Positions 190-19,593 of a DNA stretch of 21,264 bases are shown here, piece after piece. The stretch is from a virus: UHGV virus genome UHGV-0381259, one strand, 5' to 3'. The notes beneath the pieces were generated by a model. That model was not told where the DNA came from. It saw nothing but the letters and a program-made list of their open reading frames with translations, and searched no databases. Within the stretch, counting starts at the first letter, position 1; every line of letters begins with the position of its first letter. Position numbers and translations under genes: made by a program.

Positions 190-423
190 ATGCGCATTGA
201 AATAATGATCGATAAAGAGCAGAAGATTAGCCAGTCTACCCTGGACGCCCTTAAATCCGAGCTTTACCGCAATCTGCGCCCCCTGTATCCCAAAACGGTA
301 ATCCGTATCCGTAAAGGTAGCTCTAACGGTGTGGAACTGACCGGACTGCAACTGGACGAAGAAAGAAAACAAGTGATGAAAATTATGCAGAAGGTGTGGG
401 AAGACGACAGCTGGCTGCATTAA
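190..423 (+). CDS. DinI-like small protein (DNA-damage-inducible protein I family)
   Basis: 77-aa product MRIEIMIDKEQ...LYRNLRPLYPKTVIRIRKG...VMKIMQKVWEDDSWLH resembles DinI in length and in the conserved N-terminal MRIE and C-terminal W-x-D-W motifs; GAGGTG RBS 5 nt upstream of ATG 190. The track ORF from 118 is an N-terminal over-extension. Confidence 0.75.
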   Translation: MRIEIMIDKEQKISQSTLDALKSELYRNLRPLYPKTVIRIRKGSSNGVELTGLQLDEERKQVMKIMQKVWEDDSWLH

Positions 424-557
424 GAAACGTTGCTGGCGTCTGAACTTGCTTCTGGCGTCAGCAAGGTTGAACAACGAGCTGTGCGAGGCGTTAGCTCTGT
501 GGTGCATGTCTATACCGCATGAGATCGCATGATCGTTTGAGGATCGTTTTTGCTAAG

Positions 558-581
558 GCCCGCCAGAACTGGCGGGCTTTT
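558..581 (+). terminator. Rho-independent terminator-like hairpin
   Basis: GCCCGCC-agaact-GGCGGGC stem-loop followed directly by TTTT, downstream of the DinI-like gene. Confidence 0.5.
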
Positions 582-626
582 GCGTAGATCATGCAGGTGC
601 ATGAAAACCACTACATAAAGCGGGCA

Positions 627-645
627 GGCGTGGCGGGGATACGAG
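627..645. other. Candidate cos (cohesive-end) sequence of the P2-like phage
   Basis: GGCGTGGCGGGGATACGAG resembles, from memory, the 19-nt cohesive ends of P2/186 (GGCG[A/T]GGCGGGGAAAGCA-); sits in a non-coding gap. Recalled consensus, not verified. Confidence 0.25.
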
Positions 646-715
646 CGCGCGCAAATATGGAAATTAGCTGCGTTTTGTTATATATAGGAGAGATATTAAA
701 AGGGTAGGCACCACT

Positions 716-1240
716 ATGACTGTTTTACACCTTGTAGCAGACCACCTTGTTAAGCAGGCTAATACAACCCATAGAAAGGGGGAGGTGCACGCAATATTAG
801 CAGATGCATATGGTCGTTCTGCTTTTAATCGGTATTATTATGCTTGTTTTCTTAACGTCCGTGAGTTTGTTTCAACTATTGATTCCAATTGGGGCAAGGT
901 CAAGCATGCAGATGTTCCAAAATTATTACGTGATAGTGTAAGTAGAAAGATAGAAGTTGAGCTCCAAAAATCAGAAAAAATTGGCGATATAACTTTATGT
1001 GAATATAAATCTAAAAAGAGCTTAATACGTACTTCACTGAACAATATGGCTTCAACTATGGCATTGGCATATACAATTAGGGGAGTTGTTGATTATGAGC
1101 CGGAAATTGAGATGATATTCTGTAATGGCAGTTTTTCGATTAATAAAACATCAGTGGCTTCGGCTAAGGGGTGGCTACAAACCATTAATTCAGAAAGATC
1201 GAAGGTTACCAGAATTATGAAGGAGATTGGCTTTGTCTAA
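716..1240 (+). CDS. Hypothetical protein, 174 aa, first gene of AT-rich cargo cassette
   Basis: Clean ATG ORF with purine-rich RBS (AAAGGGTAGG) upstream; AT-rich codon usage unlike the phage late genes; no recognisable catalytic motif. Confidence 0.6.
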   Translation: MTVLHLVADHLVKQANTTHRKGEVHAILADAYGRSAFNRYYYACFLNVREFVSTIDSNWGKVKHADVPKLLRDSVSRKIEVELQKSEKIGDITLCEYKSKKSLIRTSLNNMASTMALAYTIRGVVDYEPEIEMIFCNGSFSINKTSVASAKGWLQTINSERSKVTRIMKEIGFV

Positions 1241-1970
1241 CCAGAAAATATTATCAGAATTGTTGGTAAAATTCCCGTTCATAAAAGTTAAAGATGTAAC
1301 AGATTTTATGGATACAATTCTGTTGATCATCCCAATTAACAAAATAGTACCATTGTCTGCTTCGAATAGTATAACAAAACGCCAGATATCTTTATTGGTG
1401 AAACGAATAACAGAAAAGCTAAATGTAAGAGTGTTGATTAGTTACTCACCATTTTCAGATAAAGACAATATTGAAGCGGCTTTAGTGGCGTTAGCGAGAA
1501 GTAATTTTAAAAAAGGGAAGATATCTGATTTGAATTTATCTTTCTTTGATTCGCAAAACGCAGTGCTTTATGTCTTTTGTAAAAACCTTACATTATCAGA
1601 ACGCGAGAAGTGGGAGTCGTTAGTTGTAGGGATATTAAACGGTTTTAATATAAAAGTGACTTCATTTGTATATGAGGCTAAAAATAATCCTGAACCTACA
1701 ATGATGGTTATTTTAAGAGCGGCAAAAAAATGTCAGCCCTTTGATCTTCCAAGATTGTTCAGTCAACTTGATAATGGCGATTATCATATTGAATCACTTG
1801 ATTGGCTGAATGGGAAGCTAGACAACTTACGTAAGAAAGGATTTTTATTAAGAAGCCATGACGGAACTTATAGAATGACATTGTCAGGGTTAGAAATAGT
1901 TCCAGTGACTAAATCTAGGCAAAGTTCTGATATAGAGAGGGTCCTTTATCTTGCACGCAAACATCTATAG
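1227..1970 (+). CDS. Hypothetical protein, about 247 aa, second gene of cargo cassette (start uncertain)
   Basis: ORF overlaps the stop of the previous gene, suggesting translational coupling; track start is TTG at 1227, first in-frame ATG near 1305. Contains VRVLISYSPFSDKD and LTLSEREKWESL motifs (see findings). Confidence 0.55.
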   Translation: MALSNQKILSELLVKFPFIKVKDVTDFMDTILLIIPINKIVPLSASNSITKRQISLLVKRITEKLNVRVLISYSPFSDKDNIEAALVALARSNFKKGKISDLNLSFFDSQNAVLYVFCKNLTLSEREKWESLVVGILNGFNIKVTSFVYEAKNNPEPTMMVILRAAKKCQPFDLPRLFSQLDNGDYHIESLDWLNGKLDNLRKKGFLLRSHDGTYRMTLSGLEIVPVTKSRQSSDIERVLYLARKHL

Positions 1971-2046
1971 TGGTATATTCGCGTTGGTAGTGGCGTTCAC
2001 GAGAGTATGCATCATGCTCATTTGTGAAGGTCGCGGACAGAATGTG

Positions 2047-2097
2047 CGCCTGCGAATCAGCAGTCGTTCCTTCGAAACGTCTGCTGATTCGCAGGCG
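2047..2097 (+). ncRNA. Candidate structured RNA element: perfect 17-bp inverted repeat hairpin upstream of the RT (possible retron msd-like stem)
   Basis: CGCCTGCGAATCAGCAG (2047-2063) pairs perfectly with CTGCTGATTCGCAGGCG (2081-2097); 17-nt loop; no U-tract after the stem; 45 bp upstream of the RT start codon. Confidence 0.3.
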
Positions 2098-2141
2098 TCA
2101 TCAACGAAAGTTTTCATCAGCTTTGCTTAAGGATTGACCTT

Positions 2142-3119
2142 ATGAAAACGCCACTACCCTTATTTTTCACATTCACTGATGCCGAACAGTTTCTTAAGGC
2201 GTTGAGCACACCGCTGAGAGATAGATATTCTGCGGAACTTATTCGACTACAAGGCCTCAGGCTTCCCCCATTAGTTTCTTGGAGTATCTTGTCTGTTGCC
2301 ATTGGCGTAAGCCCACAATTTATTACTTCGTTAATTAAGAATAAGTCAAAATACTATCGTGTTTTTTCTATTTCCAAAGGAAGAGGAAAGAAAAAAAGAA
2401 TTATTGAAGCACCCAAGGTTAGTATAAAAATCATTCAGTCTTGGGTCGCTCATCATTTAAGCATTAATCATAGTCTTGGCATAAGTGAAAATGCATATGC
2501 TTTTATCCCAGGTAAGAATGGGATATATGAAGCTGCAAGTAAACATTGTGGTGCAAAATGGATCCTGTCTATTGATTTAAGAGATTTTTTCCATACGATC
2601 ACTTCAGATATAGTGATTTCAACATTAGTTGAAATCGGATATAGAGCCGATCAGGCTGCTAAATTGAGTGAATTACTTACCTTGAATCAGAGACTTCCGC
2701 AAGGTGCGCCAAGTAGCCCTGTTATCTCAAATTTAGTATTTAGGTCAACTGACTTAAAGATTAATGAGTTGATTTCTAATACGGGTATTAAATATACTAG
2801 ATATGCTGATGATTTGACCTTCTCCGGTGATGATGAAACATTTGATATCGAGGAACTTAAAGATAATGTTGTAGAGTTGTTACTATCTGATAATTGGGTT
2901 GTGGCTGAGGAAAAACTCAGAATAGCTAGGATTCCTAATAGATTAAAAGTACATGGTTTTCTAGTTCATGAAAATAAACCTAGATTGACTAAAGGCTATC
3001 GAAATAAAATTAGAGCATATAAACATTTATTGAGGACTGGGAAAATAGTTGAGAAGGATTTTGATAAAATTAAAGGGCATGTTAACTATAGTGAATATAT
3101 TGATAGATTGAATGAGTAA
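2142..3119 (+). CDS. Reverse transcriptase, retron-type (325 aa, RT core only)
   Basis: RT motifs in the ORF: ILSIDLRDFFHTI, LPQGAPSSPVISNLVF, YTRYADDLTFSG (YADD catalytic box), KVHGFLV; size and motif spacing match compact retron RTs such as Ec86 (from memory). AAGGA RBS 8 nt upstream. Confidence 0.9.
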   Translation: MKTPLPLFFTFTDAEQFLKALSTPLRDRYSAELIRLQGLRLPPLVSWSILSVAIGVSPQFITSLIKNKSKYYRVFSISKGRGKKKRIIEAPKVSIKIIQSWVAHHLSINHSLGISENAYAFIPGKNGIYEAASKHCGAKWILSIDLRDFFHTITSDIVISTLVEIGYRADQAAKLSELLTLNQRLPQGAPSSPVISNLVFRSTDLKINELISNTGIKYTRYADDLTFSGDDETFDIEELKDNVVELLLSDNWVVAEEKLRIARIPNRLKVHGFLVHENKPRLTKGYRNKIRAYKHLLRTGKIVEKDFDKIKGHVNYSEYIDRLNE

Positions 3120-3139
3120 GGGCCTAGCCCTTACTCATT
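3111..3139. terminator. Palindromic hairpin between the convergent RT and Q genes (putative bidirectional terminator)
   Basis: AATGAGTAAGGGC-cta-GCCCTTACTCATT, a perfect 13-bp inverted repeat; the RT stop (3117-3119) and Q stop (3139-3141, minus) both lie in or at the stem. Confidence 0.45.
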
Positions 3140-4170
3140 TAATTTAATGTGTATATTCCAAAGGATATGATTTTATCTCCTATCCAGTTATTTAACTCTT
3201 CTAGTCTTCTCTGTAATGGTATTAACTCATTCCTCACAAAAACAAGGCTTGCCTTCTCCACATCCCCAAAACCCCCAACATTATTAGGCATTATCCCCAT
3301 CATTTGTGGGGGTACACGATGCGCCGCCATCATGTCGTCCCGGCTTACGTTCTTGATGTTCAGAAACTCATCCTTCGCCGCGACTTCTGATAACGGGATA
3401 ATCTGAAGTCCGTCCTTTTTGCCGTTAGGAGAGTACATAAACAGATTGCGGAAGTTACCTGGTCCTTTGGCGCTTTTCATTGCATTGCGGAGGTTGTTCA
3501 CATCCTCCTGGTTTTGTGCGGCGTCGGTCATGTACATGATGAAGCCTGCATGACTGCCGTTGATGTAATACTTCCGGCGGAACAGCGTGGCGGACTCGTT
3601 GAGCAGGGCTGACGGAATGGCAGAAAGATAACCGGGCAGGCCGTAGATCTCCTGGTTGATGTCCGGTTCCATCAGATGAAAAATGCTGCCTTTCGTGAAC
3701 TGATACGGCTGGGTTGTCATACCGTATTGCACAAACCAGTAGGTATCCAGGTCTAACCCGCGTCGGGTGTATTTTGCCAGAGCAGGCTCAAGGGCGATAA
3801 CTTCACCAAACCGGTTCGTGCGTTTCTCCAGGTAGGCGTTACCAAATACCAGATAGTCCTGCACAAAACGTGAAAAAGCCTGTTGGCTGAGCAGCGGGTG
3901 AGGGATGTAGGTGCTGGTCAGAATGTTGCATTTCACCGCAATCGGTGAGCTGTGATGCACGGCGGCGCGGAAGGTTCGCGCCAGTCCGTCAAAGCTGACG
4001 GGAGGCTCATACCAGCGATCTGTCTGTACGCATTCCACATAGTCCAGCAGTTCGCGGCGGTCAAGTACTGGAATGGGATCACCGAAGCTGAAAGCCTCAG
4101 CCGTTGGAGCGTTGCCTGGTTTTGTGTTGTGATCAACCTTTACCAGTTTGATGTTTTTATGTTTGCTCAT
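3139..4170 (-). CDS. Q: Portal vertex protein Q (P2 gpQ family)
   Basis: 343-aa product with strong similarity to P2 gpQ as recalled (PVLDRR..LDYVEC...WYEPPVSF...RAAVHHSSPI...FVRNELIPLQ); correct size and position next to the terminase gene. Confidence 0.93.
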   Translation of the reverse strand: MSKHKNIKLVKVDHNTKPGNAPTAEAFSFGDPIPVLDRRELLDYVECVQTDRWYEPPVSFDGLARTFRAAVHHSSPIAVKCNILTSTYIPHPLLSQQAFSRFVQDYLVFGNAYLEKRTNRFGEVIALEPALAKYTRRGLDLDTYWFVQYGMTTQPYQFTKGSIFHLMEPDINQEIYGLPGYLSAIPSALLNESATLFRRKYYINGSHAGFIMYMTDAAQNQEDVNNLRNAMKSAKGPGNFRNLFMYSPNGKKDGLQIIPLSEVAAKDEFLNIKNVSRDDMMAAHRVPPQMMGIMPNNVGGFGDVEKASLVFVRNELIPLQRRLEELNNWIGDKIISFGIYTLN

Positions 4171-4874
4171 TCTGCCAGCTCCTCGTTAGCAAGAGGCCAT
4201 TCGCACATAAACAGCATTCCCCAGTCCTCTGCTGATAATTCTTTTTTCATATCATTCAGCCAGTTATCAGTAAACAACATTGCTCCTGATGCTACTGCAT
4301 CATCAGCGGTGAATACCATGCGGGTTACACTGTTGTTTCTGCTTAGCTTTTTATATTCCTGCCATGCCTCCGGGTTAGGGCTGGGAGTGGTGTAGTAGGT
4401 GGCGTGGTGGTGTGCGTGCAAGGACATTCCTTTGGCGAGAGTAATCATATTTCTCGGTGATTCAGCCCAGGCATACTCTGACACGTAGACATTTCCACTG
4501 AGTGCGGCGGCGTGGCACTTGAGGTCGATAAAATAAATGACCGCACCATTGGGAAACTCCAGATATGTTTTGCCAGATTTTATTTTTCCAGTGCGCGTAT
4601 AAGCTGCGGTCTGGCTTAAAAATGCTGACACATAGGCTTTGACTGCCTGCGCTGATGCGGTGCTGCAGCAGAGGAAAATCTGGTTACGCCCGGTATGCAG
4701 TGCATCGATCAGGGCCTCATAGGCAAAAAAGAAATCCGCTCCTGCCTGGCGCATTTTTGTGAGTAAACGGTTTCTACTCTTTGGGCCAGTGTTCCACTCA
4801 TACTGGTAATCAAAGAAAGTGCTATCCACCGGAAGTCCCGCGATAGTCATGAGGTTAGTTGGGATTGGGGGCAT
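4167..4874 (-). CDS. Terminase-ATPase-domain paralog (truncated gpP-like protein, about 235 aa)
   Basis: Product aligns to the N-terminal ATPase region of the adjacent gpP (FFFAYEALIDALHTGRNQIFL vs FYFAHEALIDALLTGRNQIFL; FPNGAVIYF vs LPNGATLYF; SGNVYVSEYAWA vs HGNLYLDEYFWI; LFMCEW vs LLMCEF) but has no nuclease half. Its start overlaps the P stop (TGATG) and its stop overlaps the Q start (ATGA). Confidence 0.6.
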   Translation of the reverse strand: MPPIPTNLMTIAGLPVDSTFFDYQYEWNTGPKSRNRLLTKMRQAGADFFFAYEALIDALHTGRNQIFLCCSTASAQAVKAYVSAFLSQTAAYTRTGKIKSGKTYLEFPNGAVIYFIDLKCHAAALSGNVYVSEYAWAESPRNMITLAKGMSLHAHHHATYYTTPSPNPEAWQEYKKLSRNNSVTRMVFTADDAVASGAMLFTDNWLNDMKKELSAEDWGMLFMCEWPLANEELAE

Positions 4875-6640
4875 CAAAAAATCTCCACAATATTGCTGGT
4901 ATTGGCGGACTCGCCCTGCAGCGGTTCGTTAAACAGTGCGTGCATTGTTGCCCAGGCCAGATCGGCATGGCTGGCTTCTTCGCTGCGGCTGGCTTCATAG
5001 GTCGGGCGGTTGCCGCTGGCGGTGGTGGCGCGACGGATTGCCATAAATGACTGCGCAATGTCGGTGTGCCCGGCGTCAAACTCCAGACGGCGGTGGCTGA
5101 TAATGTCGTAGGCCTTGAGTACCAGGGCGTTTTTAACGTTGGGGTTGTAGACAAACTCCCGGACGGCAGGAAAGAACGCTTTCACGTTCTCGTAAACTCC
5201 GTGACCGACACCTGTCGAGTCGATACCGATATAGGTCACGTTGTACTGTTCGGTCAGTTTTTTGATGGCGTCAGCCTGGGCGCGGAAGTCCATCCCGCGC
5301 CACTGGTGACGCTCAAGAATGCGAAACTTACCGCCTGGCACGGCTGGCGGTGCCACCACCACGCATCCGGCGCTGTCGCCGTTCTGCGTACCTTTTGCCG
5401 GGTCATAACCGATCCACACTTCTCGCCAGCCAAACGGGCGCAGGGCCAGTGCATGAAAGTCGGTCCAGACTTCCCAACTGTCCACCATGCATGCCTGCAG
5501 CTCGCTGAGCGGAAATACGGACGCGAGATCGTCCACGAATTCACACATCAGCAGGTTCTGGTATTCGTCCGGGCTGTATTCCATGCGCAACTGGTCAAGG
5601 TCGAACAGGTTACAGCCGCCGCGCACCGCATCTTCCACGGTGACTATCTGGCGGTATTGCCCGTCTGCACACAGCAGGCCTGGAGCCAGATTGCTGTGGG
5701 ACAGGTCGATGTCCACCTTGTCGGCTTTATTGCGCCCACGGTTGAATAGCGCACCGGACCAGAACGGATAAGCACTGTGTGTCAGGCTGGATGGCGTGGA
5801 AAAATAGGTTTGTCGCCATTTTTTGTGAATAGCCATACCGGAAGCCACTTTGCGCAGCTCCTGGAATTTCGGTATCCAGAAATATTCATCCAGATACAGG
5901 TTTCCGTGGTAACTCTGGGCCGTGCGGGCATTGGTGCCGAGGAAATACAGTGTGGCCCCGTTGGGAAGCACCATCGGATCGCCTTTCAGCTCCACTTCCA
6001 CTTCTTTGGCGAAGTCGATGATGTACTGCTTAAAGACGTGGGCCTGTGCCTTGCTGGCGGAAAGGAAAATCTGGTTACGTCCGGTAAGCAGAGCGTCAAT
6101 CAGGGCTTCATGGGCAAAGTAAAAGGTCGCGCCGATCTGGCGTGACTTCAGCAGGTTGCGGATGCGGTTGGTTTTTCCGGCTTCCCACCAGTGGCGCTGG
6201 TAGTTGAACATGGAGGAATGGAAGATTTCTTCCAGCTTCTCAATCTGCTCATCGGTGAAAACATTCTTTTCCGGCTGACGGCGCGGGCCTTTGTTGCGGT
6301 TGGCGACGTTAGGGTTTAAGTCGACTTCGTTGCCGCCATTGTTAAACTTGCCGATCCGCGCGTGGCGTTCCGACTGGCGCGCCAGCAGGTCAATCTCTTT
6401 GAAATCTTTCCCTTCTTTGTGCTCCTTCATAATGAGCTGGCAGTAGCGTGCGGCGGTGGTGAGCTGCATCTGATCCAGCGGCCCATAGTCACCCCACTTG
6501 TCGCGTTTCTTCCAGCTGTGAACGGTTGCAACTTTCTCGCCCAGCATTTCAGCAATGCGGGCTACACGGTATCCCTGAAAGTACAGCAGCATGGCCTGCC
6601 GACGGGGATCGAGATCTGCGGGTGTCAGTGTGGTGTTCAT
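4874..6640 (-). CDS. P: Terminase large (ATPase) subunit P (P2 gpP family)
   Basis: 588-aa product matching P2 gpP in length and sequence character; divergent from the O gene across the late promoter region. Confidence 0.93.
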   Translation of the reverse strand: MNTTLTPADLDPRRQAMLLYFQGYRVARIAEMLGEKVATVHSWKKRDKWGDYGPLDQMQLTTAARYCQLIMKEHKEGKDFKEIDLLARQSERHARIGKFNNGGNEVDLNPNVANRNKGPRRQPEKNVFTDEQIEKLEEIFHSSMFNYQRHWWEAGKTNRIRNLLKSRQIGATFYFAHEALIDALLTGRNQIFLSASKAQAHVFKQYIIDFAKEVEVELKGDPMVLPNGATLYFLGTNARTAQSYHGNLYLDEYFWIPKFQELRKVASGMAIHKKWRQTYFSTPSSLTHSAYPFWSGALFNRGRNKADKVDIDLSHSNLAPGLLCADGQYRQIVTVEDAVRGGCNLFDLDQLRMEYSPDEYQNLLMCEFVDDLASVFPLSELQACMVDSWEVWTDFHALALRPFGWREVWIGYDPAKGTQNGDSAGCVVVAPPAVPGGKFRILERHQWRGMDFRAQADAIKKLTEQYNVTYIGIDSTGVGHGVYENVKAFFPAVREFVYNPNVKNALVLKAYDIISHRRLEFDAGHTDIAQSFMAIRRATTASGNRPTYEASRSEEASHADLAWATMHALFNEPLQGESANTSNIVEIF

Positions 6641-6686
6641 GGCACAAACCTACAGCCTTGAATGAAGGCTTTCCCCGCCTGCGGTT

Positions 6687-6704
6687 TGTGTGGTAGTCGG
6701 TACA
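6687..6704. promoter_or_regulatory. P2 late-promoter activator dyad (TGT-N12-ACA, Ogr/Delta-type site) in the divergent P/O region
   Basis: TGTGTGGTAGTCGGTACA sits in the 141-bp gap between divergent P and O, about 80-95 bp upstream of the O start. Confidence 0.5.
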
Positions 6705-6781
6705 AATACCGCGCATTGTTTCACTGCCCCATCACCGCAACCATAAGGCTCCAGTAAGTTTTTTCTAACGGAGCACGGCTC

Positions 6782-7615
6782 ATGACAGTGAAAGCAAAGC
6801 GTTTTCGCATCGGGGTGGAAGGTGCCACCACCGACGGACGCGAAATCCAGCGTGAATGGCTGGAACAGATGGCAGCCAGCTACAACCCGGCGGTGTACAC
6901 CGCGCTGATTAACCTTGAGCACATCAAGTCTTATCTGCCGGACAGCACCTTTAACCGCTACGGCAAGGTGACGGCGCTGTTTGCTGAAGAAATCACGGAA
7001 GGTCCGCTGGCGGGCAAGATGGCACTGTATGCCGACGTTGAGCCAACGGAGTCCCTGGTGGAACTGGTGAAAAAAGGCCAGAAATTATTCACCTCTATGG
7101 AAGTCAGCCCGAAGTTTGCTGATACGGGCAAAGCCTACCTGGTCGGCCTGGCTGCTACAGATGATCCCGCCAGTCTGGGCACTGAAATGCTGACATTCAG
7201 CGCCAGTGCAGCCCATAACCCGCTGGCAAACCGCAAGCAGAATCCTGCCAATCTCTTTACCGCTGCAGAGGAAACGGTGATCGAACTGGAAGAAATCCAG
7301 GATGACAAACCGTCCCTGTTTTCCCGCGTCACGGCGCTGTTCACCAAAAAAGAGCAGTCAGACGATGCCCGGTTCTCTGATGTGCATAAGGCCGTGGAGC
7401 TGGTCGCCACTGAGCAGCAAAACCTGAGTGCGCGCACCGAAAAATCCCTGTCTGAACAGGAAGAACGCCTGTCTGAGCTGGAGACAGCCCTGCAGGCACA
7501 GCAGACCGCCTTTAACGAACTGGTGGACAAGCTGAGCCATGAAGACAGCCGCCAGGACTACCGCCAGCGTGCAACAGGCGGTAACGCCCCCGCTGACACT
7601 CTGACCAATTGCTGA
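6782..7615 (+). CDS. O: Capsid scaffolding protein O (gpO family)
   Basis: 277-aa product; N-terminus MTVKAKRFRIGVEGATTDGREI and gene order (P<->O-N-M-L) match P2 gpO. Confidence 0.9.
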   Translation: MTVKAKRFRIGVEGATTDGREIQREWLEQMAASYNPAVYTALINLEHIKSYLPDSTFNRYGKVTALFAEEITEGPLAGKMALYADVEPTESLVELVKKGQKLFTSMEVSPKFADTGKAYLVGLAATDDPASLGTEMLTFSASAAHNPLANRKQNPANLFTAAEETVIELEEIQDDKPSLFSRVTALFTKKEQSDDARFSDVHKAVELVATEQQNLSARTEKSLSEQEERLSELETALQAQQTAFNELVDKLSHEDSRQDYRQRATGGNAPADTLTNC

Positions 7616-7631
7616 TGGAGCACAAAACCTG

Positions 7632-8690
7632 ATGAAGAAGAATACCCGCTTTGCTTTTAACGCTTACCTGCAGCAGCTGGCGCGTCTGAACGGTGTGGCA
7701 GTTGAAGAACTGTCCAGCAAGTTCACTGTAGAGCCGTCCGTGCAGCAGACGCTGGAAGACCAGATCCAGCAGTCCGCCGCATTCCTGACGCTGATTAACG
7801 TCACGCCAGTGACTGAGCAGTCCGGTCAGCTGCTTGGATTGGGTGTTGGCAGCACCATTGCCGGAACCACTGATACCACCGCGAAAGAGCGTGAGCCTGT
7901 CGATCCGACGCTGATGGTCGATGTGGAATATAAATGCGAGCAGACCAACTTTGACACGGTGCTGACCTACGCGAAGCTGGATCTGTGGGCGAAGTTTCAG
8001 GATTTCCAGGTGCGCATCCGTGACGCCATCGTGAAACGTCAGGCACTGGACCGCATCATGATCGGCTTTAACGGCGTGAAGCGTGCGAAAACCTCCAACC
8101 GTAGCGAAAACCCGCTGCTGCAGGATGTGAACAAAGGCTGGCTGCAGAAAATCCGTGAGGATGCACCGGATCACGTCATGGGCAGCACCACCACGGGCGG
8201 TGAAACCACTCCGGGGGCGGTGAAAGTCGGGAAAGGTGGCGAATATGCCAACCTGGACGCCGTGGTGATGGATGCCGTTAATGAGCTTATCGACGTGGTC
8301 TACCAGGACGATGACGATCTGGTGGTGATTTGTGGTCGTGAACTGCTGTCTGACAAGTATTTCCCGCTGGTCAACAAAGAGCAGGAAAACAGTGAAAAAC
8401 TGGCTGCCGATATGATCATCAGCCAGAAACGCATGGGTGGCCTGCAGGCCGTGCGTGCGCCATTCTTCCCGCCGAATGCGCTGCTGATCACCCGTCTGGA
8501 TAACCTGTCCATCTACTGGCAGGAAGACACCCGCCGCCGTTCAGTTATCGACAACCCGAAACGTGACCGGATTGAAAACTTTGAATCCGTTAACGAAGCC
8601 TATGTGGTTGAGGACTACCGCTGCGCCGCACTGGTGGAAAACATCCAGATTGGCGACTTCAGCGCCGCCGCAGCAGAAACCGGAGCGTAA
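7632..8690 (+). CDS. N: Major capsid protein N (gpN family)
   Basis: 352-aa product aligns along its length with P2 gpN as recalled (TRFAFNAYL...KFTVEPSVQQTL...LDLWAKFQDFQVRIRDAIVKRQ...VVEDY). Confidence 0.93.
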   Translation: MKKNTRFAFNAYLQQLARLNGVAVEELSSKFTVEPSVQQTLEDQIQQSAAFLTLINVTPVTEQSGQLLGLGVGSTIAGTTDTTAKEREPVDPTLMVDVEYKCEQTNFDTVLTYAKLDLWAKFQDFQVRIRDAIVKRQALDRIMIGFNGVKRAKTSNRSENPLLQDVNKGWLQKIREDAPDHVMGSTTTGGETTPGAVKVGKGGEYANLDAVVMDAVNELIDVVYQDDDDLVVICGRELLSDKYFPLVNKEQENSEKLAADMIISQKRMGGLQAVRAPFFPPNALLITRLDNLSIYWQEDTRRRSVIDNPKRDRIENFESVNEAYVVEDYRCAALVENIQIGDFSAAAAETGA

Positions 8691-8693
8691 TCC

Positions 8694-9344
8694 ATGAGCC
8701 TGAGTCCCGCACGGCAGCATCGCCTGCGCGTTCAGGCTGAACAGGCCGCCCGTGAGGGTGGCAGTGTTCGCCACGCGTCGGGCTATGACCTGATGCTGCT
8801 GCAACTGGCAGAAGACCGCCGCCGTCTCAAGGGCGTTCAGTCCACGGTGAAAAAAGCGGAAATCAAGGTGGAGCTGCTGCCGAAATATGCCGCCTGGGCG
8901 GAGGGCGTCCTGGCTGCCGGAGGCGCTCAACAGGATGACGTGCTGATGTACGTGATGCTGTGGCGCATTGATGCCGGAGATTATGCCGGGGCGCTGGAGA
9001 TCGGGCGTCATGCCCTGCGTCATGGCTGGGTGATGCCGCTGGGTAACCGCAACGTGCAGACCGTGCTGGCAGAGGAAATGGCAGACGCCGCGCAGAGCGC
9101 AATACTTGCCGCCACCGGCTTTGATGCCGATCTGTTGTTGCAGACGCTGGAGCTGACAGACGGTCTGGATATGCCGGACCAGTCACGGGCGCGTCTGCAT
9201 AAAGCGATTGGCGCTGTCCTGAGTGAAAGCAATCCGGCTTCCGCCCTTAATCATCTCAACCATGCGTTACAGCTCGATCCCCGCTGTGGCGTGAAAAAAG
9301 ACAAACAGCAGCTGGAGCGCAGACTGCGCAATGACAGCCGCTGA
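8694..9344 (+). CDS. M: Terminase small (endonuclease) subunit M (gpM family)
   Basis: 216-aa product similar to P2 gpM (LRHA..Y..ML..LA.D.R.LK...ELLP...GAQDD.LM.VMLWR.D.GD.AGALEI); immediately follows N. Confidence 0.88.
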   Translation: MSLSPARQHRLRVQAEQAAREGGSVRHASGYDLMLLQLAEDRRRLKGVQSTVKKAEIKVELLPKYAAWAEGVLAAGGAQQDDVLMYVMLWRIDAGDYAGALEIGRHALRHGWVMPLGNRNVQTVLAEEMADAAQSAILAATGFDADLLLQTLELTDGLDMPDQSRARLHKAIGAVLSESNPASALNHLNHALQLDPRCGVKKDKQQLERRLRNDSR

Positions 9345-9439
9345 CAGAACGTGCCCCCGCGCACGGGCGGCACGGGGTGGCGAAAGGCACTGCCACATCA
9401 AAACCCCGTCCACCGCCCTCTATTTCAGGAGAACGCAGC

Positions 9440-9904
9440 ATGAAGTTTGTTGCGCCAGAACAGGCACCGGAACAGGCGGAAATCATCAGGAATACGCCGT
9501 TCTGGCCTGATGTGGACTTGTCGGAGTTTCGCAGTGTCATGCGCACTGACGGCACGGTGACGCAGCCGCGTTTAAAGCAGGTTGCGCTGTCGGCAATTTC
9601 GGAGGTTAACGCAGAGCTGTATGAGTTTCGCAGACGTCAGCAGATGCTGGGGTATGCGTCGCTGGCTGAGGTTCCGGCGGAACAGCTGGACGGCAAAAGT
9701 GAGCGCATCCAGCACTATTTCAACGCGGTTTACTGCTGGGCATGCGCCATGCTCAACGAACGATACCAGGACTATGACGCCACGGCATCCGGTGTGAAGC
9801 GAGGCGAGGAACTGGCGGAATCCAGCGGTGATTTGTGGCGTGACGCCCGCTGGGCCATCAGCCGGGTGCAGGATGCGCCGCACTGCACAGTGGAGCTTAT
9901 CTGA
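9440..9904 (+). CDS. L: Head completion/stabilisation protein L (gpL family)
   Basis: Start placed at ATG 9440 (MKFVAPEQ..., AGGAGA RBS) rather than the track start 9377; size and position after M fit gpL. Confidence 0.8.
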   Translation: MKFVAPEQAPEQAEIIRNTPFWPDVDLSEFRSVMRTDGTVTQPRLKQVALSAISEVNAELYEFRRRQQMLGYASLAEVPAEQLDGKSERIQHYFNAVYCWACAMLNERYQDYDATASGVKRGEELAESSGDLWRDARWAISRVQDAPHCTVELI

Positions 9905-10107
9905 TGAAAGTGCGTGCGCATCAGTATGACACGGTGGACGCGCTTTGCTGGCGTCATTACGGGCGCACGCAGGGTGTCACGGAGCAGGTACTGAAGGCAA
10001 ATCCGGGGCTTGCCGAATATGGCCCCTTTTTACCTCACGGGCTGCAGGTGGAGCTGCCGGACATTCCGACTACCACCACCGTGCAGACCGTCCAGCTATG
10101 GGACTGA
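9904..10107 (+). CDS. X: Tail protein X (gpX, LysM-like)
   Basis: 67-aa product MKVRAHQYDTVDALCWRHYGRTQGVTEQVLKANPGLAEYG matches the P2 gpX pattern and length; start overlaps the L stop. Confidence 0.85.
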   Translation: MKVRAHQYDTVDALCWRHYGRTQGVTEQVLKANPGLAEYGPFLPHGLQVELPDIPTTTTVQTVQLWD

Positions 10108-10110
10108 ATT

Positions 10111-10326
10111 ATGACGCTTGAGCGAATCAGCGCCTTTATCACGTACTGCATCGCCGTTGTGCTGGCCTGGCTGGGTGATTTGTCCATCAAGGATGCCTCA
10201 ACGCTGGGCGGCCTGATGATCGGTGTGCTGATGCTGGCTATCAACTGGTACTACAAACACAAAGCCTACCAGCTTCTGCGCGACGGGCAGATCTCGCGGG
10301 AGGACTATGAATCCATCAATCGTTAA
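10111..10326 (+). CDS. Holin (small, two predicted TM segments; pinholin-like)
   Basis: 71-aa protein with two hydrophobic stretches and a charged C-terminal tail; immediately upstream of, and overlapping, the endolysin gene. Confidence 0.65.
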   Translation: MTLERISAFITYCIAVVLAWLGDLSIKDASTLGGLMIGVLMLAINWYYKHKAYQLLRDGQISREDYESINR

Positions 10327-10819
10327 ACGCTGCCTTGTCGGGGCCGTGCTGGCTATTGCTGCCACGCTGCCGGGTTTTCAGCAGCTTCACACCTCCGTGG
10401 AAGGGCTGAAACTGATTGCCGATTACGAAGGTTGTCGTCTGCAGCCGTATCAGTGCAGCGCGGGTGTCTGGACCGACGGCATTGGTAATACGTCGGGCGT
10501 CATTCCCGGCAAAACCATTACGGAGCGACAGGCAGCAGAAGGGCTGATCTCCAACGTGCTGCGTGTGGAGCGGGCGCTGGAAAGGTGTGTGAAGCAACAG
10601 CCGCCGCAGAAGGTGTATGACGCTGCGGTGTCGTTTGCCTTCAACGTGGGTACGGGCAATGCCTGCAGTTCCACGCTGGTGAAATTGCTCAATCAGCGGC
10701 GCTGGGCGGATGCGTGCCGACAGTTGCCGCGCTGGGTGTATGTAAAAGGTGTGTTTAATCAGGGGCTGGATAACCGCCGTGCGCGGGAGATGGCCTGGTG
10801 CTTACAGGGAGCAAACTGA
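10307..10819 (+). CDS. Endolysin, T4-lysozyme-like muramidase with N-terminal SAR/signal-anchor segment
   Basis: N-terminal Gly/Ala-rich hydrophobic segment (CLVGAVLAIAATLPG) followed by YEGCRLQPYQCSAGVWTDGIGNT, which fits the E-8aa-(D/C)-5aa-T catalytic signature of GH24 phage lysozymes. Confidence 0.8.
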   Translation: MNPSIVKRCLVGAVLAIAATLPGFQQLHTSVEGLKLIADYEGCRLQPYQCSAGVWTDGIGNTSGVIPGKTITERQAAEGLISNVLRVERALERCVKQQPPQKVYDAAVSFAFNVGTGNACSSTLVKLLNQRRWADACRQLPRWVYVKGVFNQGLDNRRAREMAWCLQGAN

Positions 10820-10820
10820 A

Positions 10821-11198
10821 ATGAAAAAGAAAGTAATCAGCGGGCTGTTTCTGATGTTATGGATAGCGCTGTTAATCGCCGCAATGGTGTATCCGCAGGG
10901 GATTTTTCCGGTACTGGCAGCATCTGGTGTCTGGGTAGCCTGTGTGCTGACATGGGCAGTAATTCCGGTATCACTGGCTGCGTTAATTAAGAACGGCCCG
11001 CTCTGGCAGGAGTTGAGGGCATCTTTGCTGAAGACAATTACCCGAAAAGAAAACGTATTTATCAGCTGGATGATGCGATTGCTGATTGTCGTCAGTCTCG
11101 CCTGGACGGGGTGGGCTATTACCCTGGTCTTTTATCTACTGACCGTTATTGCCTTCTGGATCACCCGTAATCAGATGGCGCAACAGGTAGCAGCATGA
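10821..11198 (+). CDS. lysA: LysA-like membrane protein (lysis timing/accessory)
   Basis: About 125-aa product with several hydrophobic TM-like segments, in the P2 lysA position; start taken at ATG 10821 within the longer track ORF. Confidence 0.6.
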   Translation: MKKKVISGLFLMLWIALLIAAMVYPQGIFPVLAASGVWVACVLTWAVIPVSLAALIKNGPLWQELRASLLKTITRKENVFISWMMRLLIVVSLAWTGWAITLVFYLLTVIAFWITRNQMAQQVAA

Positions 11199-11623
11199 AC
11201 CGGTTGCTGCTGGTTGTGCTGGCGTTATTACTGGCGGCGCTGGGCTGGCAGACGTGGCGGCTGGCTGATGCCAGCCAGACCATCAGCACGCAGGCAGATG
11301 AGCTTCGGAGCAAAAGCCAGGCACTGGCAAAGAGCAACAGCCAGCTTATCAGCCTGTCCATTCTGACAGAAACCAACAACCGGGAGCAGGCGCGACTCTA
11401 TGCCGACGCAGAACAGACCAGCGCACTACTGAGACAACGACAACACCGGATTGAGGAACTGAAACGTGAGAACGAGAATTTACGCCGCTGGGCTGATACT
11501 CCTTTGCCTGCTGACATTATCCGGCTGCGGGAACGCCCCACACTCACCGGAGGTGCAGCTTACCGTCAGTGGTTGTCCGCGAGTGACGCAGTGTCGGCTG
11601 GGGCAGGCAGCGCCTCGCACTAA
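11195..11623 (+). CDS. lysB: LysB, Rz-like inner-membrane spanin
   Basis: 142-aa product with N-terminal TM segment (LLLVVLALLLAALGW) then a long charged coiled-coil-like region; ATGA overlap with lysA. Confidence 0.7.
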   Translation: MNRLLLVVLALLLAALGWQTWRLADASQTISTQADELRSKSQALAKSNSQLISLSILTETNNREQARLYADAEQTSALLRQRQHRIEELKRENENLRRWADTPLPADIIRLRERPTLTGGAAYRQWLSASDAVSAGAGSASH

Positions 11624-11756
11624 CGGTGACCTGAACGCGTTGCTGGATGAAACGGAGGCCGCCTGGGCGGTCTGTGCAGACAAAGTGGACATGATTATTG
11701 CGTGTCAGGAGCGAAACAGTGAACAAACCACAATCCCTGCGCCACGCCCTCAATAA
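11466..11756 (+). CDS. lysC: LysC, Rz1-like outer-membrane lipoprotein spanin, embedded in the +1 frame of lysB
   Basis: Lipobox LTLSGC after a hydrophobic signal segment; Cys/Pro-containing mature region; ORF starts inside lysB and runs past its stop into the R start region. Confidence 0.6.
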   Translation: MRTRIYAAGLILLCLLTLSGCGNAPHSPEVQLTVSGCPRVTQCRLGQAAPRTNGDLNALLDETEAAWAVCADKVDMIIACQERNSEQTTIPAPRPQ

Positions 11757-12150
11757 AGCGGTGCCTTATGTCCGCAATAACCCGGACAAACTGCATCTGT
11801 TTGTGGATAACGGTTCGCTGGTTGCCACGGGGGCCAGCTCCATGTCGTGGGAGTACCGTTACACACTGAACGCGGTGATTGAGGATTTCAGCGGCGACCA
11901 GAATCTGCTGATGGCCCCGGTTTTGCTGTGGCTGAGGGATAACCAGCCCGATGCCATCAATAACCCGGCGTTACGGGAAAAGCTATTCACCTTTGAGGTG
12001 GATATTCTGCGCAACGATGTCTGTGATATCAGCCTGAACCTGCAACTGACGGAACGTGTGCTGGTCAGCACTGACGGCAGTGTGTCGAGCGTTGAAGCTA
12101 TAGCGGAACCTGATGCACCTGAAGAAATGTGGACGGTGAAACGTGGCTGA
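11719..12150 (+). CDS. R: Tail completion protein R (gpR family)
   Basis: Product from GTG 11719 (VNKPQSLRHAL...FVDNGS...VLLWLRDNQPD...) parallels P2 gpR as recalled; start codon choice is uncertain. Confidence 0.8.
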   Translation: MNKPQSLRHALNKAVPYVRNNPDKLHLFVDNGSLVATGASSMSWEYRYTLNAVIEDFSGDQNLLMAPVLLWLRDNQPDAINNPALREKLFTFEVDILRNDVCDISLNLQLTERVLVSTDGSVSSVEAIAEPDAPEEMWTVKRG

Positions 12151-12589
12151 ACTGCAGAAGGTGGACGACTGGCTGAGTGCCTTGCTGGCGAATCTGGAAC
12201 CAGCCTCGAGAAGCCGCATGATGCGCCAGCTGGCGCAGGAACTTCGCCGGACACAGCAGCAGAATATCAGGATGCAGCGCAACCCTGACGGCAGCAGCTA
12301 TGAACCGCGACGGGTAACAGCACGCAGTAAAAAAGGCCGTATCAAACGTCAGATGTTTGCAAAGCTGCGCACCACAAAATACCTGAAAACAGCTGCCAGC
12401 ACCGACTCTGCCAGCGTGCAGTTTGAAGGCAAGGTGCAGCGCATTGCCCGCGTTCACCATTACGGCCTGCGAGATCGCGTCAGTCGTAAGGGACCGGAGG
12501 TGCGTTACGCAGAGCGTCGCCTTCTGGGTGTAAATGATGATGTTGAGGCAATGACCCGCGACATGATTCTGCAATGGCTGGCGGGGTGA
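12143..12589 (+). CDS. S: Tail completion protein S (gpS family)
   Basis: 148-aa ORF overlapping the R stop, in the P2 S position; GTG start. Confidence 0.8.
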   Translation: MAELQKVDDWLSALLANLEPASRSRMMRQLAQELRRTQQQNIRMQRNPDGSSYEPRRVTARSKKGRIKRQMFAKLRTTKYLKTAASTDSASVQFEGKVQRIARVHHYGLRDRVSRKGPEVRYAERRLLGVNDDVEAMTRDMILQWLAG

Positions 12590-12593
12590 TCTT

Positions 12594-12611
12594 TGTATCA
12601 GCACTGATACA
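12594..12611. promoter_or_regulatory. P2 late-promoter activator dyad (TGT-N12-ACA) upstream of gene V
   Basis: TGTATCAGCACTGATACA, a near-perfect palindrome, lies about 50-65 bp upstream of the V start codon in the S-V gap. Confidence 0.55.
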
Positions 12612-12657
12612 AGTTGCAGCACTGCCGCCTTTCTTCCCCTGATGGCAACCTTTCCCT

Positions 12658-13236
12658 ATGAACGCACAATTAACCGAAATCATGCGCCTTATCACCAACC
12701 TGATCCGCACAGGGGTAGTCACCGAAGTGGACAGGGAAAACTGGCTTTGCCGGGTGAAAACGGGCGAGCTTGAAACCAACTGGATCAGCTGGCTGACGCT
12801 GCGTGCCGGGAATGCCCGTACATGGTGGCGACCATCGGAAGGTGAGCAGGTGGTGTTGCTGAGTCTGGGCGGCAATCTGGAAACCGCCTTTGCGCTGCCC
12901 GCTGTCTATTCGAATCAGTTCGCACCACCGTCGACGTCGGCGGACGCCTGCGTGACAGAACATCCTGACGGTGGCTGGTTTGAATACGAACCCGCCACCG
13001 GGCGCTGGTATGTCAGGGGCATCAAATCAATGGTCATTGAGGCTGCTGACAACATCACCATGAAAACCAGTGAGTTTGTACTGGAGGCTGACCGCACGCG
13101 CATTAACAGCGAAGTGGTGATCAATGGTGGCGTTACCCAGGGCGGCGGAGCGATGAGTTCTAACGGGATCGTGGTTGATGCGCATCAGCATACTGGCGTC
13201 CTGAAAGGCGGCGATACAACCGGAGGCCCGGTATGA
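12658..13236 (+). CDS. V: Baseplate spike/assembly protein V (gpV family)
   Basis: 192-aa product; N-terminal region (ITNLIRTGVVTEVD...) and Gly-rich C-terminus are typical of gpV; gene order fits. Confidence 0.88.
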   Translation: MNAQLTEIMRLITNLIRTGVVTEVDRENWLCRVKTGELETNWISWLTLRAGNARTWWRPSEGEQVVLLSLGGNLETAFALPAVYSNQFAPPSTSADACVTEHPDGGWFEYEPATGRWYVRGIKSMVIEAADNITMKTSEFVLEADRTRINSEVVINGGVTQGGGAMSSNGIVVDAHQHTGVLKGGDTTGGPV

Positions 13237-13592
13237 CGCTTTATAGCGGGATGAACAATACCAGCGGCAAAGTCATTACTGATATTGATCATCTGCGCCA
13301 GTCGGTGCGGGACATTCTGCTGACACCGCAGGGTAGCCGTATTGCCCGCCGGGAATATGGTTCCCTGCTGTCGGCACTGATAGATCAGCCACAAAATCCG
13401 GCATTACGCCTGCAGGTCATGTCGGCAGTGTATGTGGCGCTGAGTCGCTGGGAGCCACGGTTGACGCTGGATTCCATCACCATCAACAGCAATTTTGACG
13501 GTTCAATGGTGGTGGAGCTGACCGGGCGGCGGAATAACGGTGTGCCTGTGTCCCTTTCCGTATCAACAGGAGCAGAGAATGGCAGTGATTGA
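13233..13592 (+). CDS. W: Baseplate wedge protein W (gp25-like)
   Basis: 119-aa product (DIDHLRQSVRDILLTPQGSRIARREYGS...) typical of the gpW/gp25 family; ATGA overlap with V. Confidence 0.88.
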   Translation: MTLYSGMNNTSGKVITDIDHLRQSVRDILLTPQGSRIARREYGSLLSALIDQPQNPALRLQVMSAVYVALSRWEPRLTLDSITINSNFDGSMVVELTGRRNNGVPVSLSVSTGAENGSD

Positions 13593-14487
13593 CCTTTCGC
13601 AGTTGCCTGCACCGCAGATTGTGGATGTGCCGGACTTTGAGACGCTGCTTGCCGAACGCAAGGCAGAATTTGTGGCGCTTCATCCGAAAGATGAGCAGGA
13701 AGCCGTGATCCGCACGCTGGAACTGGAATCTGAACCCGCCACTAAATTGTTGCAGGAGAACGCTTACCGTGAGTTGCTTCTGCGCAAGCGCATTAACGAA
13801 GCCGCGCAGGCGGTGATGGTGGCTTACGCGATGGGCGGCGATCTTGACCAGCTCGCTGCCAACTACAACGTGACACGCCTGACGGTGACGCCTGCTGATA
13901 ATGATGCTGTGCCGCCCGTTGCAGCTGTGATGGAAAGCGATGAAGCGTTGCGCCTGCGTGTGCCTGCAGCCTTTGAAGGGCTTTCTGTTGCGGGGCCAAC
14001 TGCAGCTTATGAATTTCATGCCCGAAGCGCCGACGGTCGGGTGGCGGATGCCAGTGCAACCAGCCCGGCACCTGCAGAGGTGGTGCTGACTGTCCTTAGC
14101 CGCGAAGGCGATGGAACTGCAGAAAAAGACCTGCTGGACGTGGTGGAAAAAGCTCTGAACAGTGAGAACGTCCGCCCGGTGGCTGACCGTCTTACGGTTC
14201 GCAGCGCAGAAATCATCCCGTATCGCGTGGAAGCCACCATTTTTCTCTATCCGGGACCGGAAGTAGAGCCGGTAATGGCAGCGGCAAAAGCCAGTCTGCA
14301 GAAGTACATTGCCAGCCAGACGAGGCTTGGTCGGGATATTCGCCGTAGCGCCATCTTTGCTGCTCTGCATGTTGAGGGTGTTCAACGTGTGGAACTGGCT
14401 TCTCCGCTGGCGGATGTGGTCCTGAACAAAACACAGGCGGCATCATGTACGCAGTGGAGCGTAACCAACGGAGGAACGGATGAATAG
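13579..14487 (+). CDS. J: Baseplate assembly protein J (gpJ family)
   Basis: Start taken at ATG 13579 (MAVIDLSQLPAPQIVDVPDFETLLAERKAEF...) rather than the track start 13540; about 302 aa as in P2 gpJ. Confidence 0.88.
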   Translation: MAVIDLSQLPAPQIVDVPDFETLLAERKAEFVALHPKDEQEAVIRTLELESEPATKLLQENAYRELLLRKRINEAAQAVMVAYAMGGDLDQLAANYNVTRLTVTPADNDAVPPVAAVMESDEALRLRVPAAFEGLSVAGPTAAYEFHARSADGRVADASATSPAPAEVVLTVLSREGDGTAEKDLLDVVEKALNSENVRPVADRLTVRSAEIIPYRVEATIFLYPGPEVEPVMAAAKASLQKYIASQTRLGRDIRRSAIFAALHVEGVQRVELASPLADVVLNKTQAASCTQWSVTNGGTDE

Positions 14488-16473: not shown

Positions 16474-16475
16474 CC

Positions 16476-17310: not shown

Positions 17311-17331
17311 TTTTCACTCCATATAGCTAAA

Positions 17332-17682: not shown

Positions 17683-17696
17683 AACGTTTAAGAAAA
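17671..17696. other. Candidate right crossover site (hix/gix-like) of the invertible segment
   Basis: TTCTCCCAAACC-AA-CGTTTAAGAAAA closely resembles the recalled Hin/Gin site consensus TTCTTGAAAACC-AA-GGTTTTTGATAA. Confidence 0.5.
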
Positions 17697-19581: not shown

Positions 19582-19593
19582 GGAGCCTGACAA

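Follow-up and report, generated by a model that had tools for sequence, protein, structure and literature searches.

The virus genome UHGV-0381259 was analysed as a single stretch of 21,264 nucleotides (hereafter the window), the whole of which is 100% identical to the chromosome of Escherichia coli MFDS1016424, where it belongs to a P2/186-like prophage. The prophage has the order integrase, CI, replication endonuclease, DinI, cargo, portal, terminase, capsid, and lysis and tail genes. The cargo, which lies between the DinI and portal genes, is an island rich in adenine and thymine (AT) that consists of three co-oriented open reading frames (ORFs) on the + strand and a 171-nucleotide gap. We are highly confident that this island is a complete and intact type IX retron, a kind of anti-phage system, encoding a toxin of the HEPN type, a winged-helix (WH) protein, a noncoding RNA (ncRNA) and a reverse transcriptase (RT), and that it occupies the cos-proximal defence hotspot of the prophage. 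The components of the cassette are listed below.

655–715, + strand: cassette leader with a candidate promoter and a putative Shine–Dalgarno-like AAGGG/GGTAGG; homology to nonphage cassettes begins at 650–657
716–1240, + strand: HEPN-like RNase effector (toxin), 174 amino acids; PADLOC HEPN_IX, 1.4e-52
1233–1970, + strand: KH-KH-winged-helix protein (WH, or helix-turn-helix, HTH), 245 amino acids; PADLOC HTH_IX, 1.5e-61
about 1986–2158, + strand: predicted retron ncRNA (msr–msd), mapped onto the 173-nucleotide Kva2 ncRNA; its 3′ end overlaps the RT start codon
2003–2019, + strand: msr stem-loop (Kva2 G18–C34); consensus helix 3, 100% paired in 13 sequences
2030–2105, + strand: msd template (Kva2 G45–C120); helix 4, in which 19 of the 20 pairs show compensatory changes
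2069–2074, + strand: tip of the msd hairpin, CCTTCG, of which CTTCG (2070–2074) is invariant and C2069 nearly so in 13 sequences
2106–2125, + strand: short stem AAAGT/GCTTT (2107–2111 with 2120–2124); helix 5, 95% paired
2142–3119, + strand: retron RT, 325 amino acids, with a type IX-specific N-terminal domain; PADLOC RT_IX, 4.2e-129

The three proteins were compared with the PADLOC models, with Pfam and with the sequences of the PDB, in which entry 36ht is the electron cryo-microscopy structure of Retron-Kva2 from Klebsiella variicola (Hayashi et al., 2026; Hibshman et al., 2026). Retron-Kva2 has the same four components in the same order. Its proteins have the same lengths as those encoded here (174, 245 and about 325 residues) and the HEPN pair H64/R122 and the RT motif YADD (residues 221–224) are identically numbered, whereas the sequence identity is only 60% for HEPN, 51% for WH and about 61% for the RT. 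The RT scores 428 bits with the PADLOC model RT_IX and 224 bits with that of the next type, RT_II-A (6e-67), and is the only cargo ORF with a Pfam match (RVT_1, 5.4e-23). It aligns with chain A of 36ht over residues 1–325 (1.5e-145); its best solved relatives are all retron RTs, and it scores 487 bits to the Kva2 RT compared with 117 to that of Ec86. The RT of Retron-Yin1 (Yersinia intermedia; Carabias et al., 2026) is more distant, at 48% identity. The catalytic YADD is intact, with the two aspartates at D223 and D224.

The effector aligns from end to end with chain I of 36ht, the Kva2 HEPN protein (residues 1–174 over 1–174, 5e-67), and its catalytic residues H64 and R122 are both present. 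In the published Kva2 active site these two residues come from two different helices; Kva2 requires both of them and Sen3 requires H64 (2026 preprints). Pfam gave no match to this protein at E ≤ 0.1. A string R20-KGEV-H25 (R20-x4-H25, nucleotides 773–790) resembles the canonical Rx4–6H motif and is probably fortuitous; Kva2 has RKGAQT at this place. The combination of a curated profile match and a conserved Rx4–6H that characterizes canonical HEPN proteins was not found, and the effector would act like an HEPN RNase yet lies outside the curated HEPN families. HEPN-MNT, the other HEPN toxin–antitoxin RNases and Cas13 are likewise dimeric HEPN RNases that cut tRNA anticodon loops and rRNA and arrest growth. 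The type IX effector differs from these in having no Pfam HEPN match, in carrying its catalytic His and Arg on different helices and in lacking the canonical Rx4–6H. It also differs in being restrained by a scaffold of protein and multicopy single-stranded DNA (msDNA) rather than by nucleotidyl transfer or a crRNA.

The WH gene overlaps the HEPN gene by 8 nucleotides if it is started, as in RefSeq, at the TTG at 1233; an alternative in-frame TTG at 1227 would give a protein of 247 residues. Its product aligns over its full length with chain B of 36ht, the Kva2 WH protein (3.6e-78), and Pfam finds nothing in it. Residues D197, R200, K201 and R207 are present exactly at the numbering of the WH contact residues of Retron-Sen3 from Salmonella enterica subsp. 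arizonae (Carabias et al., 2026), and by analogy the protein would serve as an antitoxin and as an msDNA-binding adaptor. Mutagenesis in Kva2 or Sen3 has identified HEPN H64/R122, RT D223/D224 and WH D197/R200/K201/R207 as essential (2026 preprints); every one of these residues is conserved here at the same numbering. The gene order HEPN–WH–ncRNA–RT, all on the + strand, is the published order of type IX and recurs with the same spacing in 16 related loci that hold a full cassette (two others, L093 and L096, are cut at the contig end). The sequence features by which type IX is recognized (Mestre et al., 2020), namely an RT of the type IX clade, the His/Arg pair of HEPN, a second accessory protein with a C-terminal WH/HTH domain and this operon order, were all found.

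The fourth component, an adjacent msr/msd ncRNA with the long msd hairpin expected of a retron, fills the gap between the WH and RT genes. The region 1940–2150 folds better than its shuffles (z = −6.4). An alignment of 13 sequences, including eight distant type IX loci (RT 38–45% identical), gives a consensus of 38 base pairs, 27 of them with a compensatory change; 94.5% of the alignment cells are paired, compared with 31–40% when the partners are slid by 1–3 columns, and none of 500 shuffles reached the observed value. Across four other P2-like carriers the ncRNA is 88–95% identical at the nucleotide level and the flanking genes are 51–82% identical. Position n of the Kva2 ncRNA corresponds to position 1985 + n of the window, anchored on the 17-nucleotide msr stem-loop, to which the thumb domain of the RT binds in the structure of Kva2. 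This single offset reproduces 12 of the 14 RNA positions and 16 of the 18 msDNA positions that are named in the Kva2 structure paper (28/32). Copying of the msd template from right to left would yield an msDNA of 76 nucleotides whose long hairpin derives from 2048–2096, with a predicted folding energy of −42.3 kcal/mol (RNA energy parameters). The DNA complement of the CCTTCG tip gives T-C-G-A-A-G-G, the tip bases that are contacted by the HTH domain in Retron-Yin1 (Carabias et al., 2026), and all six of the contacted bases (dT26, dG28, dA29, dA30, dG31 and dG32) are reproduced. The short stem that follows the template is flanked by two conserved guanines, G2106 (the ‘opposing’ G, Kva2 G121) and G2125; the latter is the candidate branching G, equivalent to Kva2 G139.

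In the leader, a candidate promoter is formed by TATATA at 681–686 and a weak −35 element near 657–662; the ATATATA core is unchanged across six loci. The leader travels with the cargo and may supply both the promoter and the Shine–Dalgarno function.

The original prediction for this DNA, made from the letters alone, had described a cargo block far more AT-rich than the flanking phage genes, with the DinI-like gene and the late genes richer in guanine and cytosine (GC), and had proposed sliding-window GC and codon-usage analyses as a check. Both analyses bear the description out. GC ranges from 0.31 to 0.43 across ∼700–3300 in a 400-nucleotide sliding window and is ∼0.55 over the late genes. 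It is 36.0% for the cargo (716–3119), 36.6% for 600–3138 and 54.5% for 3139–21264, which places the cargo at z = −6.5 relative to all windows of the same length from 3139 to the end (mean 0.548, standard deviation 0.029, minimum 0.473). The DinI gene has a GC content of 47.0% and the portal gene one of 49.5% overall, with an AT-rich 3′ end. GC at third codon positions is 0.31, 0.30 and 0.27 in the three cargo genes and 0.52–0.69 in 15 late genes (Mann–Whitney p = 0.0012); at positions 1 and 2 the values are 0.35–0.40 and 0.45–0.58, so that the biggest shift is at the third position. Synonymous codon usage differs clearly between cargo and late genes (summed chi-square 536 with 41 degrees of freedom, p = 2e-87). 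The sole GC-richer patch within the island is the noncoding gap (1971–2141, 48.5% GC), which corresponds to the retron ncRNA. The prediction concerned composition only; the identity of the cargo as a type IX retron is added here.

Such a composition might also arise by relaxed constraint in a decaying, nonfunctional remnant, a reading to which we give almost no credence. Two of the three cargo proteins carry the label hypothetical, and the RefSeq (PGAP) annotation places a pseudogene, ‘hypothetical protein, internal stop’, at 519–707; the latter, however, covers the cos site as well as the cargo leader and is most probably an annotation artefact. The three ORFs are full length relative to their solved homologues with all catalytic and contact residues intact, the conserved ncRNA shows covariation, and an identical RT is present on about 40 contigs, all of which speaks for an intact type IX retron.

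The surroundings of the cassette are those of the cos region of P2-like phages, with the following features.

190–423, + strand: DinI-family (Tum-like) gene of the phage backbone, left flank; Pfam DinI, 8.9e-23; RefSeq DinI-like family protein
422–503: a further variable slot that separates DinI from the terminator/cos block; it is empty here and measures 82 bp
504–654: conserved phage cos block, the left recombination flank; 88–98% identical in seven related phages
558–581, + strand: GC-rich hairpin followed by TTTT, upstream of cos, read from the sequence
627–645, + strand: cos cohesive-end sequence GGCGTGGCGGGGATACGAG, by comparison with the annotated 186 and P4 ends
3111–3139: hairpin with a perfect 13-bp stem, AATGAGTAAGGGC cta GCCCTTACTCATT, where the RT and portal genes converge; −27.9 kcal/mol for the 69-nucleotide junction segment
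3139–4170, − strand: portal gene (P2 Q/186 W) of the backbone, the right recombination flank; Pfam Phage_portal

The cos block aligns with the right and left genome ends of P4 and with the left end of 186. The annotated 19-nucleotide cos of 186, at the start of its genome, is GGCGTGGCGGGGAAAGCAT, the left end of P4 is GGCGAGGCGGGGAAAGCAC, and the cos core is invariant in five P2-like phages that carry type IX retrons. The block matches about 1,280 E. coli records, the match ending at 651–655 in a spread sample of these. In pairwise BLAST comparisons with seven related phages or prophages the left homology breakpoint falls at 652–654 in all seven, and the cargo starts 7–9 nucleotides past the cohesive end. 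On the right, homology to the seven related phages resumes at 3128, 3145, 3166, 3176, 3179, 3212 and 3212. Since it resumes anywhere between 3128 and 3212, the recombination junctions fall within the portal C-terminus, the replacement of which is apparently tolerated. The last ∼24 codons of the portal gene (3139–3212) are AT-rich and in several comparisons belong to the nonhomologous zone. In phage 186, 145 bp after the end of cos lead to the terminator tW and the portal stop; this spacer, with 57.6% GC and no cargo, is replaced here by a module of ∼2.47 kb (655 to ∼3127).

A hairpin stands on either side of the RT cassette, the left one upstream of cos. That at 558–581 sits where 186 has the terminator t95b (annotated ∼160 nucleotides before the right end of the 186 genome) and may insulate the cargo from read-through of the DinI/Tum operon. 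That at 3111–3139 includes the RT stop codon, reaches up to that of the portal gene and presumably terminates transcription in both directions; the other cargoes each have their own, different hairpin at the RT–portal junction position, and tW is at the equivalent position in 186. A consensus scan for promoters and terminators missed both hairpins, and an Rfam match of the junction hairpin to MIR405 on both strands was dismissed as spurious.

The hotspot of P2 (the old/tin locus) has been described as an interval between gpA and gpQ, adjoining cos, of highly variable content that includes retrons (Rousset et al., 2022; PMC9122126). The location here agrees with that description, the replication endonuclease being followed by DinI, cos, the cargo and the portal gene, and so does the exchange of content. 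Seven alternative cargoes share these breakpoints in P2-like relatives from E. coli, Klebsiella and Salmonella. The proteins encoded there by related elements include a P-loop NTPase, Hypoth_Ymh, a TIR protein, a St85-family retron, a 565-residue hypothetical protein (in Fels-2), an Abi-alpha/AIPR protein and DprA, STAS-like and DUF4145 proteins. Among 5,426 complete E. coli genomes the flanks were matched in 1,277 and the cargo in three. The expectation of the original prediction that the cassette would be independent of the phage backbone, as swappable hotspot cargo, is thereby upheld, including by the comparison with the same hotspot of related prophages that it had suggested, which found unrelated cargo in the slot. 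The block that it delimited at 600–3138 is real as an island, but comparison with related phages gives sharper edges, at 652–654 and 3128–3212. We propose that cargo exchange proceeds by recombination in the two flanks, the conserved cos block to the left and the portal 3′ end to the right. According to the title of Dodd & Egan (1996), as it appears in PMC6868368, the retrons Ec67 and Ec86 lie between cos and a terminator of a 186-related prophage. Ec67 (Eco2) and Ec86 (Eco1) thus share the insertion interval of the present cassette, from cos to the terminator downstream of the portal gene; they are other types of retron, with other effectors (an RT–Toprim fusion and a nucleoside deoxyribosyltransferase-like protein), and their RTs match the RT described here only at 1e-20 to 1e-32.

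The slot between DinI and the cos block, of which only 82 bp are present here, is filled in Fels-2 and two Klebsiella phages, in which homology breaks at 421 and resumes at 504 with ∼845 bp inserted. The insert has a gene at the position of 186 orf97, the expression of which is annotated as blocking 186 infection. The P2 genes old and tin lie on the other side of cos. The hotspot of Rousset et al. (2022) is resolved here into two sub-slots, one from DinI to cos (422–503, empty) and one from cos to portal (655–3127, filled).

The adjoining backbone includes an extra 236-residue gene with a Terminase_6N domain (4167–4877, − strand) between the portal and terminase ATPase genes. It is present as in 186 (‘similar to Orf12’), and the backbone is therefore 186-like here rather than P2-like.

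The original prediction had taken the low GC as a mark of horizontal acquisition. Mobile, swappable cargo is supported by the comparisons above, but the low GC cannot date its arrival. In all 13 loci of a first set, from hosts of 41–64% GC, the type IX cassette has a lower GC than its flanks (mean difference −13 points), with cassette GC tracking flank GC (Spearman 0.72), and four more loci (34–37% GC versus 43–55% for the flanks) bring the count to 17 of 17, although these loci are not phylogenetically independent. Where other P2-like phages carry the cassette in this slot, its GC is 35–38%, and eight unrelated cargoes at the cos–portal slot all have 33–37%. Because these eight cargoes are so uniform and because diverged cassettes are still AT-rich, the low GC is a persistent property common to the hotspot gene pool and not the mark of a recent arrival.

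A rival reading is that a low-GC donor transferred the cargo recently and that its composition has yet to be ameliorated. The cargo is 18 points below the phage and rare in E. coli, and the usual average GC of E. coli lies ∼15 points above it; distant type IX cassettes do occur in lower-GC hosts, for example Shewanella and a metagenome-assembled genome of Paracoccaceae. The relatives, however, share its composition: the cassettes of Citrobacter, Morganella, Yersinia and Serratia (71–87% nucleotide identity) and those of the P2-like phages (RT 60–80% identical) all have 34–38% GC, without any sign of amelioration despite long divergence, and the unrelated cargoes of the slot are equally AT-rich. 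In two P2-like loci, L091 and L092, the divergence of the cassette is similar to that of the portal gene next to it (77–82% versus 80–82% nucleotide identity), and among the matches listed no relative from a low-GC host is closer than 45% RT identity. We consider a recent transfer to be improbable.

A persistent trait of the pool could in turn be selected rather than historical, the AT-richness being actively maintained either for the dampening of a toxic system by H-NS or because mobile elements favour cheap, weakly expressed cargo. H-NS prefers AT-rich DNA, and both the uniform GC of the eight unrelated cargoes at one slot and an offset that is negative in every host while cassette GC tracks host GC are consistent with such selection; the HEPN effector is also toxic if unrestrained, according to the Kva2 preprint. 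An AT-biased mobile gene pool together with mutation bias explains the pattern equally well, though, and the 48.5% GC of the ncRNA inside the island indicates that composition yields to function locally while remaining silent on selection elsewhere. We judge active maintenance to be somewhat unlikely, although it deserves more weight than a recent transfer, and retain the persistent trait of the pool as our reading of the low GC.

The cassette is found in other elements and hosts as well. Five viral contigs (RT 60–80% identical) have a type IX RT tail-to-tail with a P2-type portal gene, and four of them hold the full cassette. Four cassettes from ordinary genome assemblies, with 71–87% nucleotide identity and identical gene geometry, sit elsewhere: that of Citrobacter in an island with integrase, AlpA and DUF927 genes beside smpB, that of Yersinia in a conjugative element (ArdC, TrwB), and those of Morganella and Serratia at chromosomal sites. 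A fixed association of enterobacterial type IX retrons with the P2 slot, suggested by five of five viral contigs, was rejected on account of these four genome-derived homologues, all of which lie elsewhere. A search of genome contigs with the single RT found no relatives, and an alignment-based search of genome contigs gave, among the matches listed, only distant type IX loci; the close relatives were reached through viral contigs and exact-protein look-ups. The homology of the four non-P2 loci to the window extends from ∼650–657 to ∼3113–3121, and the mobile module is therefore delimited and includes the 60-nucleotide leader.

Just upstream of the cassette, a degraded cos block of P2/P4 type was detected in Citrobacter sedlakii (L171, 2937–3010) and Serratia marcescens (L174, 2949–3010), with local alignment scores of 44 and 48 compared with a shuffle mean of ∼14.5; none of 500 shuffles reached either score. 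The remnant is marginal in the Yersinia conjugative element (1/500 shuffles) and is not significant in the Morganella locus by the same test. It is possibly a scar of origin from a cos-adjacent hotspot. The C. sedlakii cassette is the closest outside E. coli (87% nucleotide identity, RT 88% identical at the amino-acid level), and its island beside smpB is laid out like P4, with a cos-like sequence, cargo, integrase and att, the integrase being of the P4 family (E = 4e-75). Classification of the island as a P4-like satellite was nevertheless rejected: its DUF927 primase has no similarity to P4 alpha, and sid, delta and psu are absent from the 4.5-kb flanks. The island is only ‘satellite-like’, and could be a case in which a satellite-like element has a defence module in common with a P2-like phage. 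As a tentative suggestion, which we hold to be less probable than its converse, the cos-adjacent hotspots of P2-like phages and satellites may be a reservoir that has seeded enterobacterial type IX retrons into chromosomes and conjugative elements. Were this so, the hotspot pool would have a selected composition of its own and the direction of its export could be traced, because of the cos-block remnants and the uniform 33–37% GC of unrelated cargoes; it would also include phage-to-satellite or satellite-to-phage exchange, which a 2026 survey reported to be very rare.

A mechanism can be proposed by homology to Retron-Kva2, Sen3 and Yin1 (48–61% identity). In these systems the RT–msDNA, the WH protein and a HEPN dimer form a higher-order assembly that occludes the HEPN active site, and abortive infection against phages has been shown for Kva2 and Sen3 (2026 preprints). 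The reported triggers are Bas24-Exo, which is λ-Exo-like, and Bas14 B14T, a PD-(D/E)XK protein, both of which cleave msDNA, or alternatively T5 D5, which binds it (2026 preprints). In the lysogen, the cassette would be expressed from its own leader, and the RT would prime from the branching G (candidate G2125) and copy the template from 2105 to 2030 to give a hairpin msDNA of 71–76 nucleotides. RT–msDNA, WH and HEPN would then form a higher-order ring or sheet that occludes the active site of the HEPN dimer (H64/R122). Cleavage of the msDNA by a λ-Exo-like or PD-(D/E)XK nuclease of an invading phage, or its binding by a DNA-binding protein like T5 D5, would cause the assembly to fall apart. 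The freed HEPN would cleave tRNA anticodon loops and rRNA, translation would stop and the infection would be aborted, so that the lysogen population and the resident prophage would be protected. The same mechanism as in Kva2, Sen3 and Yin1 is most likely to operate here, because the tested residues and the named nucleotides are conserved.

Several points weigh against this interpretation. The assignment of msDNA production, defence and trigger specificity draws on homology at 48–61% identity. The candidate branching G2125 is offset by 1 nucleotide from the Kva2 position, and an Rfam scan of 400–3400 at E ≤ 1 returned only chance matches and no retron family. The leader promoter is only a weak consensus match, and a promoter scan reported none above threshold in 655–715. 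The three 2026 preprints, moreover, disagree with one another both on the trigger (msDNA cleavage by a nuclease versus T5 D5 binding) and on the assembly (a ring, a sheet or an asymmetric complex).

A second AT-rich dip, at 16.2–17.8 kb, was considered as a candidate for the second P2 defence hotspot (Z/fun) and was rejected, since it coincides with an invertible tail-fibre host-range segment (16135–18329). The segment, which also includes the C-terminus of the tail-fibre gene, has the following parts.

16135–16199 and 17615–17679: inverted repeats of 65 nucleotides, 78% complementary
16476–16898, + strand, and 16870–17310, − strand: tail-fibre assembly genes, opposed
17332–17781, − strand: alternative fibre C-terminal segment
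17733–18329: serine invertase (Resolvase and HTH_7)

Inversion of this kind is comparable to that of Mu G or P1 C.

The RT of the window has itself been classed as a type IX RT, as WP_088551309.1 of E. coli MFDS1016424 (Carabias et al., 2026, Table S1). The hotspot, the type of retron, its structure and its mechanism are thus all published, and the present finding is correct, explained and already known. One loose thread is the cos-block remnant upstream of the Citrobacter and Serratia cassettes, which hints at a cos-adjacent origin. In practical terms, a precise functional annotation that includes the ncRNA can take the place of the public one, which gives a ‘reverse transcriptase family protein’, hypothetical proteins and a pseudogene that is spurious. 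The cassette is a type IX retron native to E. coli, with its native leader delimited at 655–715, and as such offers a test case for the disagreement over the trigger among the three preprints. Low GC should not be taken as a clock of acquisition at defence hotspots. In the main, the result confirms existing knowledge that P2-like prophages arm their hosts with interchangeable, cos-adjacent defence modules, type IX retrons among them.

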